Below are positions 1 through 11,413 of a stretch of 64,000 bases of DNA, piece by piece. Under the pieces are notes generated by a model. The model saw only the letters and a program-made list of their open reading frames with translations, had not been told where the DNA came from and did no database searches. The stretch spans positions 2,147 to 66,146 of the forward strand of contig JANQPN010000074.1 of NCBI GenBank assembly GCA_028289455.1, read 5' to 3'. Both the position numbers and the translations under genes were made by a program. This DNA is from Wenzhouxiangellaceae bacterium (lineage in GTDB: Bacteria; Pseudomonadota; Gammaproteobacteria; Xanthomonadales; Wenzhouxiangellaceae). How positions within the stretch are numbered: position 1 is the first letter of the stretch; every line of letters starts with the position of its first letter.

Positions 1-1978
1 CCAGGTCAAGATCGCACAGGGTCTCGTTGATAATGCTGACAGTCAGTGTTTCATCGGGCAGGCTGATGCTGCTGGAACCGGTCAGGCTGATATCAAAGGT
101 TTCGGTGTCCTCGGATACGTCATCACCAAGTATGGTCACGGCCAGCTGCGCCTGTGTGCTGCCGGCCAGAAACTGCAGCGTGCCGGAATTGGCAAGGTAA
201 TCTGATCCGGCCGTCGCAGTGCCATCAACGGTCTCAAAGTCTACGGTAATGTCACTGTCGATAGACTCAGCCATCGTCAATGTGACTATCAGCTGGGTGC
301 TGGTGCCGGCAATGCCCGGTTCGTCAACCGTTTTACAATCCTCGGCATCGTCGTTGTCACAATCGGCTGTTATATCGGGTGTTGAATCGTCGTTGTTGAT
401 GGTGATATCGGCCTCGTCAGCATCATTTTTGATCACCGCATTGATGGCATTCTCGAGATTGAGGGTAAAAATTTCATCGTCTTCAAAATCAGTGTCGGGA
501 ATAATCGGCACCTGAATGGATTGGGTTAACGAGGCGCTTTCACCCGGAAAGGTGAGGGTGCCTTCGGCACGCTCGTAATCGATGCCAACCAGGGCTGTGT
601 CATCGCGGGTGAAATAATTTACCTCGATATCATCACCGGCGGGGTGAGCTCGCGTGAGCGCTACATCAATTACTGCCACATTTTGAATGCCGCGCGTCGG
701 ATCGCCTTCCTGGACCGAGACCGAACTGACTTCAATTTCAGCCGGCAGAAAGATTTTGCTGACATAAAAGAAACCAAAATTGTCAGTCAGGCCGGTGGCC
801 TGCGCCATCAGAATGTTGCCGTCCTGGGCAAAAGTCACATCATTGCCTTCATTGCAGTCGCCAGGCGAGAAAACCGTCTCAGGATCCACATCGGCATCAA
901 AAGCCAGTTGGGCCTCAATGGTACAGTCACTGCCGGAGGTCAGCTCTGTGGTAACCACATAATCCTGAGTGGCTGAGTTGCCGCCAAGGCTGGGACTGTT
1001 ACCGGAAACCAGCGTTTCCTGTGAATCTGCTATGTCGCCATCCAGTAGCAGGTTGGCGGAATAGGCGTTGTCGCCATCGGTCCATGCGACCACGTATTCA
1101 CCATTTTCATAGGCAACCGCCAGTGGGTCATAGAAATTCGAAGCGTCATTGCCGTCGTCATCCTCAACCTCATCGTTGAGTTGGGTGGCATCGCTGATAG
1201 CTGTTCCTGATTCACGGTAGGTGATGGCATAGATATTGCCCGCACAGCTGTCATCATCACGATCAACCGGCTCTACCCAGGTAATAATCAAATCACCGGA
1301 AGCACTGCTGGCTACATCGGAAAGGTCGCAATCAGCAATCAGAAAATCGTCGGCAATCGCGTCAAACAGCAGCACGTTATCCTGAAAGGTGCCTGCACTG
1401 TCATAGTAGAAAAACTCTGTTTCAAACAGGCTGAAGGTGTCCACATCGGTTTCCGAACTGCCCACTACCCAGAAAGTATTTTCCGTGACCGCCAGATTCA
1501 CATCCCACCAGAAGCCCGCGTCGGTGGAGAACTCAATCGCGTCAAACAGATCATTGCCGTCTATATCAAAACCCTGCACAAAGGCTTTGTCGTCACCGGT
1601 CCACAGCACATACATGTCATTCTCGTCGTTAATGCCGACATCCAGATTGGAGAGATCAATGCTGTAGCTGGTGCCCGTGGTCGACAGGGTGCCCAGACTG
1701 GAGATTAAGATATTCGAGATTTCATCGCCATCAGAGTCGTGAACGTAACAGTCGATGTTATACCGGGTGCCCTCGGCTACCGGGCTGACTGAAAAGCCCA
1801 CACAGGTAACGATGTTGCCGGTGGCCGCATCGCTGTCGAGGCTGAAGATAATGTCATCCACGCTGGAATTGTAATTGCCGACATTGATGAAATCCTCATC
1901 AATACTCACCAGTTCAGCGTGTAGCTGACTGATGGTTCCAAGGGTAAGCAGGGTTGCGATAATAATAAGCCGTTTCAT
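1..1978 (-). CDS. Giant exported Calx-beta repeat protein, copy 1 (first ~659 codons only; 3' end lies beyond the left window edge)
   Basis: The minus-strand frame is open from the ATG at 1976-1978 to position 1. GGAGGA lies 7 nt upstream, and the N-terminus MKRLIIIATLLTLGTI is signal-like. It is absent from the ORF track because no stop falls in the window. The translation shares AYENGEYVVAW, two Calx-beta-like blocks (..VDGTATAGSDY..) and IINETLCDLDL with the 1230-aa protein at 4939..8631. Confidence 0.85.
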   Translation of the reverse strand, partial: MKRLIIIATLLTLGTISQLHAELVSIDEDFINVGNYNSSVDDIIFSLDSDAATGNIVTCVGFSVSPVAEGTRYNIDCYVHDSDGDEISNILISSLGTLSTTGTSYSIDLSNLDVGINDENDMYVLWTGDDKAFVQGFDIDGNDLFDAIEFSTDAGFWWDVNLAVTENTFWVVGSSETDVDTFSLFETEFFYYDSAGTFQDNVLLFDAIADDFLIADCDLSDVASSASGDLIITWVEPVDRDDDSCAGNIYAITYRESGTAISDATQLNDEVEDDDGNDASNFYDPLAVAYENGEYVVAWTDGDNAYSANLLLDGDIADSQETLVSGNSPSLGGNSATQDYVVTTELTSGSDCTIEAQLAFDADVDPETVFSPGDCNEGNDVTFAQDGNILMAQATGLTDNFGFFYVSKIFLPAEIEVSSVSVQEGDPTRGIQNVAVIDVALTRAHPAGDDIEVNYFTRDDTALVGIDYERAEGTLTFPGESASLTQSIQVPIIPDTDFEDDEIFTLNLENAINAVIKNDADEADITINNDDSTPDITADCDNDDAEDCKTVDEPGIAGTSTQLIVTLTMAESIDSDITVDFETVDGTATAGSDYLANSGTLQFLAGSTQAQLAVTILGDDVSEDTETFDISLTGSSSISLPDETLTVSIINETLCDLDL

Positions 1979-10057: not shown

Positions 10058-11413
10058 CTAACGCAGACTGCCGGCAGACCCGATAGCCCGATAGGCCTGG
10101 GCGAACAGGTTATAAGCTGCCAGATAGTTTTCAGCGTTGTAAGCCTGATCACCCTGAGTCAACAGAGTCAGTGCCGTGCCGGTATTGCCGGGGCTGATAC
10201 TGTCCATCAGGACAATCGCCTGAATAACCACTTCACGAACCTCTTCCAGCTGCCCACCATGTTCCGCAGGGGTTACGTATTCTGGTACGGTGTAGTCCGG
10301 ATTGGCCAATGCCCGGGCAATTTCATCCCGATTAAGTAATATGAATCCATCGGCAACCGCGCTGGTCAGCTCATCAGCAGTTGTCTGGAGCATGCCGGTC
10401 ACAGAGATCAAATCCTGTGTATCTTGACGGATTTCCTCACCTGACTGCTGCAAATCAGCAGTGCGTGTCTGCACATCCTGAATGTTGACCTGATTTATCT
10501 GTGTCCGGAATTGAACATCTTCGGTTTCAGCGATTAAGTTGGTCAGGTTTTCAGTTAAGTCCTGCAGTTCCGCCAAGGTCACATCCAGGTCATCACTGAT
10601 AGTGACAAAATTGGTGTCAATAGTATTCTGTATATCTATCAATACGTTGTCGGCCGCCAGCGTGCTGACTGTCACCTGATCGACGGCATCCTGGGATGTC
10701 CGGCTTGAAATTGCCGTTTGATCCACGGCCTCATTGAAAAAAGCGCCGATATTGCGATCCAGTTGTAAAATTGCCTCGCCTTTGGCTGCACGTGACTCAC
10801 CCCGGCAAAAATCGCCTTCACGATAGACAAATTCAGCAGTCACTGCGGCAATCTCAAGCACGGTACAGGCAGTAGCACTGTTTTCTCCCGCCACCTGTTG
10901 GAGACAGGTAAACTTTGCCGCTTCCACAACCGCGCTCAGTATCTTATAAGTCCCCTGTGAAATACCTACTACTGTCCCTGGAATGTCAATGCAAAATGCG
11001 ATGGCGGTTTCGACTTCCGGGATATCAATGGTATCCACTTCCGGTGATGAATCTGAATTGAAAACATTGATATCCGGTTGTTCAGAAGCTCTCAGAGCGC
11101 CTGGTAATGCGCTAATTTGCTGTTGCGCCATTAACACCATAGCCTGCAGCGTATTCAACGGCATGGCGTTTGACTGCATTGCCACAAGCGCTTCATCCGG
11201 CATCTGTATGATTTGCTGAAGGGCGTGACGGACAGTTGCCTGTGAATTGGAAGAGGGGATATAGGTGTGCAGTTGCTCAGTAAGCAGATTCAGCTCTATC
11301 AGCGCATCGCGGTATTCCCGCACTGTTTGTGCCTGTAAAACACTACTGAAGAGTAAGCTGCCCACAATCAGCAAGCTGCCGGGCAGGGCGCCTGATCGCA
11401 ACAATCTAAGCAT
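10058..11413 (-). CDS. Exported helical protein, type B, cassette 2 (unassigned family)
   Basis: 451-aa ORF with GGGAG 9 nt upstream of the ATG and signal peptide ..LLFSSVLQA-QT. It shares every conserved block with 3363..4697. Confidence 0.9.
   Translation of the reverse strand: MLRLLRSGALPGSLLIVGSLLFSSVLQAQTVREYRDALIELNLLTEQLHTYIPSSNSQATVRHALQQIIQMPDEALVAMQSNAMPLNTLQAMVLMAQQQISALPGALRASEQPDINVFNSDSSPEVDTIDIPEVETAIAFCIDIPGTVVGISQGTYKILSAVVEAAKFTCLQQVAGENSATACTVLEIAAVTAEFVYREGDFCRGESRAAKGEAILQLDRNIGAFFNEAVDQTAISSRTSQDAVDQVTVSTLAADNVLIDIQNTIDTNFVTISDDLDVTLAELQDLTENLTNLIAETEDVQFRTQINQVNIQDVQTRTADLQQSGEEIRQDTQDLISVTGMLQTTADELTSAVADGFILLNRDEIARALANPDYTVPEYVTPAEHGGQLEEVREVVIQAIVLMDSISPGNTGTALTLLTQGDQAYNAENYLAAYNLFAQAYRAIGSAGSLR

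Follow-up and report, generated by a model that had tools for sequence, protein, structure and literature searches.

The first 11,413 nucleotides of a 64,000-nucleotide stretch of DNA from a Wenzhouxiangellaceae bacterium (assembly GCA_028289455.1, contig JANQPN010000074.1, positions 2,147 to 66,146; the whole stretch is called the window below) carry two tandem cassettes of three genes each. Each cassette encodes two secreted coiled-coil proteins, designated B and A, followed by a giant Calx-beta protein. All six open reading frames (ORFs) lie on the minus strand, and ORF calls and translation place them where a preliminary description, made from the sequence alone, had located them. Cassette 1, the upstream one, consists of B2 (10058..11413, 451 aa, a member of the B clade), A2 (8628..10052, 474 aa as the maximal ORF, an A-clade paralogue of B) and giant2 (4939..8631, 1230 aa). 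Cassette 2 downstream comprises B1 (3363..4697, 444 aa; entry P0017 in a public collection), A1 (1975..3366, 463 aa as the maximal ORF; public record P0001) and the N-terminal 659 aa of giant1 (1..1978), which was read by translation and is open at the window edge. The likelier start of A2 is the second ATG at 10046, 6 nt past GGAGA, yielding 472 aa. In P0001, A1 starts at the ATG at 3351, 7 nt past GGAG, yielding 458 aa.

The junctions of the two cassettes are tight. In both, the stop codon of A overlaps the start codon of the giant gene as ATGA (CCATGAAA, CAATGAAT) at 1975-1978 and 8628-8631, exactly as the preliminary description had it. The 3' end of B1 reads ...AAATGAGGAGCAGTCACATG and that of B2 ...TAGGGAGAATGCATATG, the B2/A2 junction being TAG-GGAGA-ATGCAT-ATG. 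At both B/A junctions, a GGAG-type Shine-Dalgarno sequence is present at the B stop or just past it, so the ribosome-binding site postulated for A exists in both copies. The translational coupling that had been suggested is plausible, since the 4-nt A/giant overlap is kept in 10 of 13 junctions at other loci. Each cassette is probably a single operon read in the order B, A, giant, with short or overlapping junctions and probable translational coupling, and the three proteins would probably be made in fixed proportion. Searches of Pfam and NCBIfam agree with the earlier statement that the block contains no enzyme, transporter or regulator domain.

All six proteins begin with an n-h-c signal region that ends in an AXA-type cleavage site (LQA/Q, ASA/Q, TYA/E, VHA/Q, ANA/Q and LHA/E, with the slash at the predicted cut; ...VLQA/Q belongs to B2 and TYA/E to a giant). 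These calls were made with a simple home-made rule, not with SignalP, and bear out the Sec-type signal peptides proposed before. Past the signal peptide, no convincing membrane segment was found at a mean Kyte-Doolittle hydropathy > 1.6 in a 19-residue window; a single marginal window of this length occurs in A2. None of the three protein types has a hydrophobic segment at the C-terminus. With net charges between -40 and -166, the proteins are extremely acidic, and they contain little lysine. Giant2, for instance, contains 197 D+E versus 29 K+R.

A and B are homologous. A1 and B1 share 44% identity over the C-terminal 322 aa (E 2e-81), a point that was missed in the preliminary description. 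This means that the unit is coil, coil, giant. Between the cassettes, A1 and A2 are 40% identical (E 1e-102) and B1 and B2 39% (E 7e-95). The family was aligned with 23 and later with 56 sequences. Four cysteines are invariant in the 56-sequence alignment (C150, C179, C192 and C212 in A1), the motif SRA(S/T)QD is invariant in the A/B alignments, and the stretch DIQFRVQENQVDIED...EIRTDTQSII is near-invariant. The terminal domain bears the signature LPxxxGGxLExxRE...GDxAYNxxxYxxAYxxFxxAY. The conserved cysteines of A and B, and likewise those of the giant, are apparently paired, which suggests disulfide bonds.

In A1, local hidden Markov models (HMMs) delimit three parts on the minus strand, given here in the numbering of the 463-aa ORF: a helical head with the four cysteines (4-Cys head; 2632-3219, residues 50-245), a heptad coiled coil (2233-2631, residues 246-378), also supported by periodicity, and a helical C-terminal domain (CTD) of ~75 residues (2002-2232, residues 379-455). 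The AlphaFold2 model of A1 is all-alpha (predicted local distance difference test, pLDDT, 71.6; predicted TM-score, pTM, 0.38). It consists of an N-terminal bundle, a two-helix head bearing the cysteines, a single exposed helix of 123 residues (256-378) and a three-helix CTD with a pLDDT of ~90. Column-averaged hydrophobicity has a strong period of 3.5 residues that is strongest over residues 245-378. By this measure, the segment is predicted to be a canonical heptad coiled coil of ~130 residues and ~19 nm. A profile search against PDB sequences returned only matches of ~70 residues, all to polar coiled coils that form trimers, namely coronavirus HR1 (best E 1e-6), HA2 and a SadA fragment. They reflect coiled-coil resemblance and hint, at the very most, at trimers. 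Homology to coronavirus S2 or class I fusion proteins was rejected: CoV_S2 scores 17.6 bits versus a cut-off of 40, and the matches are limited to ~70 polar-heptad residues.

A and B could not be placed in any named family. In Pfam, NCBIfam, PHROGs and PADLOC, they drew only sub-threshold coiled-coil noise, as which the matches to SMC, Rad50, JetC, LmuB and tape-measure proteins were set aside. An assignment as phage tail fibre or structural protein was likewise discarded, with PHROGs matches confined to coiled coils (E>=4e-4) and none in phage or viral collections. Foldseek found nothing significant in the PDB for the A1 model (best E 0.15). P0067, a compact relative of 343 aa, was modelled from a 40-sequence alignment with much better scores (pLDDT 89.9, pTM 0.66), and its model had no significant match either (best E 0.12 in the PDB, 0.04 in BFVD). 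The top Foldseek matches, namely ferritins, designed proteins and BAR domains, are generic helical bundles and were discounted. The inability of the preliminary description to name a family is thus borne out by all of these searches, which brought no confident match of A or B to a characterised family. According to sequence and model comparison, the family and its predicted fold are undescribed and have no solved counterpart.

Nevertheless, A and B are not complete orphans. A word-indexed search of 5.8 billion proteins recovered only 21 close relatives of 440-465 aa, in which no Pfam domain is found; two of these, a pair in a metagenome-assembled genome (MAG) of the Wenzhouxiangellaceae, are annotated merely as hypothetical proteins. 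In 1.84 billion cluster representatives, searched exhaustively with a profile, 855 matched at E<=1e-3 and 47 at E<=1e-30. By these profile matches, A and B form the giant-linked branch of a larger unnamed superfamily, for which neither a name nor a Pfam model nor a studied member was found. Its plan, traced with local domain HMMs, is signal peptide, 4-Cys head, variable spacer or coil, and CTD. A and B are full-length members with the four cysteines, SRA(S/T)QD and the CTD signature LPxxxGGxLExxRE...GDxAYN...AY. In the local HMM scan, CTD matches end <= ~20 residues from the C-terminus except in four proteins with longer tails. A minority of the superfamily matches contain a repeat-plus-CTD module alone, and there it is located at the extreme C-terminus of secreted proteins. 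The N-terminal parts ahead of this module are a beta-helix, four FG-GAP repeats plus PKD, or four Ig domains, and their domain content suggests that they are adhesin-like passengers. No protein of this kind has a name, and Pfam has no model for the repeat and CTD. The motif SRASQxSVD occurs once in A/B, at the start of the coil, and in up to 16 tandem copies (<=16) in distant CTD-bearing proteins. Such arrays were seen in P0154, P0113, P0087 and P0089, the N-terminal parts of which are of the Ig, FG-GAP/PKD or beta-helix kind; they appear to be an undescribed repeat type.

The third gene encodes a multidomain protein. Approximate domain limits of giant2, all on the minus strand, were obtained from an alignment of 10 orthologues, from which the Cys pairs and the tail were also derived. 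The signal peptide (8566-8631, residues 1-22) is followed by an orphan beta-rich N-domain of ~380 residues (7417-8565, residues 23-405), two Calx-beta domains (6682-7404, residues 410-650), four BACON-like Ig domains (5551-6687, residues 649-1027), a possible lectin-like domain of the ConA type (5017-5550, residues 1028-1205) and a conserved Cys-containing tail (4942-5016). Calx-beta (PF03160) is assigned with 104.6 bits in giant2 and 100.9 bits in giant1 versus a cut-off of 27, in two stretches each, and PDB profile matches to the NCX1 CBD reach E 1e-20 in this region. BACON and BACON_2 (PF13004/PF19190) score 38.4 and 39.3 bits versus cut-offs of 25 and cover three stretches; one weak PDB profile match (E 1e-3) falls into the BACON-like region. 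The alignment displays four Cys-bracketed BACON-like repeats, the fourth of which we infer from a Cys...Cys-x-Trp pattern, and conserved acidic DxxFExDExF motifs in the Calx-beta domains. The C-terminal domain of ~180 residues matches the trans-sialidase lectin domain (TS_C) weakly (E 0.007). The available part of giant1 comprises signal peptide, N-domain and both Calx-beta domains. It is about 42-43% identical to giant2. Cys 1228 in the tail of giant2 (SVCTQ; ~4948-4950) co-varies with an extra Cys 950 in the last BACON-like domain (~5782-5784): the sole orthologue that lacks the tail (L006:11368-15084) also lacks the extra cysteine. This suggests a Cys 950-Cys 1228 disulfide that pins the tail back. 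A metagenome scan with an alignment of the giant N-domain gave no confirmed locus, and nothing relevant was found in the literature on Wenzhouxiangella with Calx-beta or on Calx-beta/BACON/coiled-coil combinations.

The association of the coil genes with the giant is strict. Neighbourhoods were read at 13 loci besides the window in NCBI MAGs and in ENA/TARA, JGI and Logan assemblies. At 13 of 13 with readable downstream DNA, a coil gene of the subfamily is followed by a Calx-beta/BACON giant of 1165-1238 aa, of which L015 contains only the N-terminal part due to a contig end. Hence, the suggestion that A/B homologues adjoin a Calx-beta giant gene holds for all close homologues at these loci. 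Two cassettes each are present in L001 (MAG OFTM154) and L007, one each in L003 (MAG OFTM396) and L005, and one triad each in L018 and L019. L006 combines one triad with one single coil gene and its giant. L015 has coil genes for 462 and 464 aa ahead of the giant N-terminus, L009 and L017 have coil plus giant, and L016, an Acidobacteriota MAG, a single coil gene plus giant. Thus, the linkage spans at least two phyla. Since flanking genes differ between the loci, the cassette is the conserved unit. The giant-linked branch contains the members closest to A/B (profile E<=1e-33). P0075, a far relative (profile E 3e-23) and the sole far member examined, stands alone with no giant nearby; this makes the linkage a property of the A/B branch and not of the whole superfamily. 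Every carrier found so far is a MAG or metagenome contig of uncultured, marine or environmental origin. A set of 185,579 species-representative genomes yielded just 3 loci, in two Gammaproteobacteria MAGs and one Lysobacterales MAG. A tblastn search of 50,697 phage records returned no match, and neither did plasmid collections or IMG/VR viral contigs.

The three genes have diverged together. Pairwise distances were calculated for B, A and the giant in 11 complete cassettes, and the three matrices correlate with r = 0.91-0.96. In the window, cassette 1 has its orthologue in cassette 1 of L001 (identities of 61% for B, 68% for A and 71% for the giant) and cassette 2 in cassette 2 of L001 (69%, 67% and 80%; for giant1, the 80% refer to the first 650 aa). 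By contrast, the two cassettes inside the window are only 38-42% identical in all three genes. This substantiates the earlier view of an old duplication retained as a unit. When 24 coil proteins from 11 loci were placed in a neighbour-joining tree, the products of gene 1 (B) and gene 2 (A) fell into two distinct clades, with B2 in the B clade. Consequently, the split between A and B is older than the cassette duplications. The cassettes of L007 are mutual closest relatives and must have arisen by an independent duplication. The whole unit has been duplicated at least twice, independently in the window/L001 lineage and in L007.

What might such a unit do? As our tentative preference, which we would put at somewhat less than even, A and B build a hetero-oligomeric stalk that carries the cognate giant, and the product is an extracellular, Ca2+-stiffened binding appendage. 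A and B would pair via their coiled coils to yield a hetero-oligomeric rod, or a homo-oligomer where only a single coil gene exists, and this rod would be the stalk or scaffold. The cognate giant would dock on it non-covalently, most plausibly at the 4-Cys heads, which hold the position that is occupied by passengers in the fused proteins. The giant would contribute two Calx-beta domains that likely bind Ca2+, four BACON-like spacers and possibly a lectin-like end domain. The assembled product would be a binding appendage outside the cell or on its surface, stiffened by Ca2+. Tandem cassettes would supply alternative versions without cross-assembly. In favour of the appendage are the operon anatomy, the export signals, the rod-like shape, the strict linkage and the co-divergence as well as the fact that in other bacteria the coil+CTD module is fused behind adhesin-like passengers.

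The proposed product matches the reviewed layout of anchor, extension and adhesion parts, and Calx-beta domains of giant adhesins are thought to contribute to binding (PMC7616799). It resembles trimeric autotransporter adhesins such as YadA and SadA, which have this layout, in that a long coiled-coil stalk would hold a binding head away from the cell. The A/B coil has heptad periodicity, its weak sequence matches are to trimeric coils, and among them is the SadA stalk fragment 2wpr (E 0.0055). However, in trimeric autotransporters head, stalk and beta-barrel anchor are one polypeptide secreted by the type V pathway, whereas the cassette encodes two stalk chains and a separate presumed binder of 1,230 aa. 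Pfam and NCBIfam gave no match to a YadA anchor or beta-barrel, and the C-terminal domain of A/B is predicted to be three helices (pLDDT ~90). With LapA-type giant adhesins, the cassette giant shares the very large size, the acidity and the Calx-beta domains. LapA-type adhesins leave the cell by means of a type I secretion signal at the C-terminus, contain RTX repeats and are not known to have a Sec signal peptide. The cassette giant differs from them by its Sec signal peptide, BACON-like domains and obligatory coiled-coil partner genes, and no RTX/HemolysinCabind match was obtained for it in Pfam.

Several points weigh against the appendage. We only infer that A pairs with B, that the giant binds to them, that the product is extracellular and that it is adhesive. 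A cell anchor was sought with Pfam, NCBIfam and a sequence rule (lipobox, beta-barrel, LPXTG, PEP-CTERM, GlyGly-CTERM, type IX secretion system), and none was found; in particular, none of the six proteins has a lipobox, and one SVAGG/GlyGly-CTERM match is far below threshold (33 bits versus 150) and covers the Calx-beta region, not the C-terminus. No secretion genes occur among the genes surrounding the cassettes, which are ordinary chromosomal ones (SRAP, a TonB-dependent receptor, RND efflux, SdhA). P0067 folds confidently as a monomer, implying that the core of the superfamily needs no partner, and P0075 stands alone, so that the basic function of the family is independent of the giant. 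The lectin-like assignment at the giant C-terminus is below threshold and therefore only a possibility. Finally, adjacent genes will diverge together simply because they share their descent.

A related proposal, which we regard as rather improbable, shifts the emphasis from the giant to the helical module. Coil plus CTD would be an unrecognised surface-display system, the 75-residue CTD a new anchoring or sorting domain, and A/B with the giant its split, multi-subunit form. In keeping with this, the predicted CTD occupies the very C-terminal end of secreted proteins, or lies close to it, in several phyla, and its superfamily counts 855 cluster representatives. In that case, and with the same low expectation on our part, the cassettes would specify a new hetero-oligomeric extracellular fibre with a helical fold absent from the PDB and an adhesin recruited as a separate polypeptide.

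The same operon anatomy can also be read differently. A and B might be accessory factors of the giant, i.e. periplasmic holdases or adaptors for export, folding or tethering, and remain outside the final structure; we consider this unlikely. Strict adjacency and coupling with the giant would fit a client-specific helper equally well, every duplicated giant retains its own A/B pair, and a surface anchor is found on none of the three proteins. However, coupled genes should yield near-stoichiometric amounts of protein, and chaperones are not usually made in this way; a 19-nm heptad rod with two predicted head disulfides looks structural. Moreover, in other proteins the coil+CTD module and adhesin-like passengers form one permanent fusion, and relatives without an adjacent client, such as P0075, exist.

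The composition of the proteins would also suit a lattice or matrix that assembles by itself on the surface, for instance a coat like an S-layer or the scaffold of a biofilm, in which A/B rods are the struts and the giant is a Ca2+-bridged tile. The proteins are very acidic and lysine-poor, the conserved acidic Calx-beta motifs suggest Ca2+ dependence, they are secreted with no obvious anchor, and the several diverged cassettes per genome are reminiscent of alternative surface-coat loci. We judge a lattice quite unlikely because neither a known S-layer family nor an SLH-type anchor is recognisable in Pfam or NCBIfam, and the distribution, with 3 loci among the species-representative genomes, is very sparse.

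The paralogy of A and B raises the question of a toxin. In the ClyA superfamily (Hbl, Nhe, YaxAB/XaxAB), paralogous proteins that are secreted, elongated and all-alpha share an operon and act in concert. Tandem paralogous secreted all-alpha elongated proteins of ~450 aa recall such bi- or tripartite alpha-pore-forming toxins, and A/B could be a binary pore former of the ClyA/Hbl/Nhe/YaxAB kind with the giant as targeting or carrier component. But A and B share neither sequence nor fold with these toxins: HBL, ClyA and related families have no match at E<=1 in Pfam/NCBIfam for any of the four A/B proteins, and Foldseek against the PDB was not significant for A1 and P0067 (0.15 and 0.12), though such toxins have solved structures. 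A hydrophobic tongue or convincing insertion segment past the signal peptide is missing, barring the marginal A2 window. The four invariant cysteines, the canonical heptad coil instead of a folded-back bundle and the constant partnership with an adhesin-like giant are further differences, so that a toxin is highly improbable. That the arrangement is meaningless, i.e. an artefact of assembly, the remnant of a phage or mobile element or a set of unrelated genes adjacent by chance, has next to no probability: apart from the fact that all carriers are MAGs or metagenome contigs, the assembly quality of which is not independently checkable, nothing speaks for it, and it is refuted by 13 independent loci with the same order in independent NCBI, ENA/TARA, JGI and Logan assemblies, by copies only 38-43% identical, which assembly duplication would not produce, and by the lack of any phage, plasmid or viral-contig match beyond coiled-coil noise in PHROGs and PADLOC. 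The preliminary description had already argued, correctly, that the copies are too diverged for an artefact.

Outside the coding regions, the two cassettes are separated by a spacer of 241 bp (4698..4938, minus strand). The hairpin reported there previously (4902..4924, minus strand) is real: reading of the sequence gives a perfect 10-bp stem with a 3-nt loop 15 nt past the giant2 stop, and the fold has a free energy of -19.4 kcal/mol (z = -4.6 versus shuffles). It is not followed by a U tract and is, therefore, not a canonical intrinsic terminator. A terminator scan did not detect it, and the equivalent spacer of L001 shows no conservation of its sequence. Possibly, it is an mRNA-stabilising or partial termination element. 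The spacer also contains the palindrome GGACATGATGTCC (4712-4724) beside the GGGAG Shine-Dalgarno sequence of B1 (4705-4709). The 507-bp region 5' of B2 (11414..11920, minus strand), shared with a divergent SRAP gene and presumed to be the promoter region, has the palindrome GGACTTGGTCC at 11430-11440 and GGGAG at 11423-11427. A palindrome GGAC-N3-5-GTCC was found a few nt 5' of a GGGAG Shine-Dalgarno sequence at every B gene examined (window and both L001 cassettes). RNA folding at the B-gene palindromes is weakly favoured (z -2.0 and -0.4), and the element is a possible protein-binding site or translational element. Promoter and terminator scans predicted no more sites than in shuffled sequence.

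The divergent gene upstream of the cassettes encodes an SOS-response associated peptidase (SRAP; 11921-12718, plus strand), which is also present in L003 (7420-8181; MAG OFTM396). L001 and L003 additionally have a 936-938 aa protein with a weak Chlorophyllase match and an ORF of 164-167 aa near the cassette. SRAP and these other shared neighbours look like local synteny among close relatives and not like part of the unit. Just past SRAP, two tandem secreted-looking orphans of 599 and 630 aa (13018-14817 and 14780-16672, both plus strand) are 49% identical over 590 aa, and neither has a Pfam family. They are followed by a TonB-dependent receptor (17132-19813). Between 26000 and 28000, the GC content drops to 0.387 versus ~0.50 elsewhere in the window. 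An ORF in this segment (26034-27065, minus strand) has weak SIR2-like matches (Pfam E 9e-4; PADLOC SIR2 E 5e-6 to 3e-5), and the low-GC stretch is possibly a small defence islet gained by horizontal transfer. With ARAGORN, and with Rfam at gathering thresholds, no tRNA, tmRNA or Rfam family was detected in the 64-kb window.

If the appendage reading is correct, two paralogous rod proteins of an unnamed family would carry a separately encoded giant Ca2+-binding adhesin, and the result would be a long-reach binding appendage unlike pili, autotransporters and RTX adhesins. The A/B family is new. Its likely building principle, stalk plus adhesive head, is familiar. The repeated duplications of whole cassettes with matched divergence of all three genes constitute a natural system for the co-evolution of partner specificity. 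Furthermore, the appendage would give a first clue to the function of the several hundred uncharacterised secreted proteins that make up the superfamily and have the same head and CTD.

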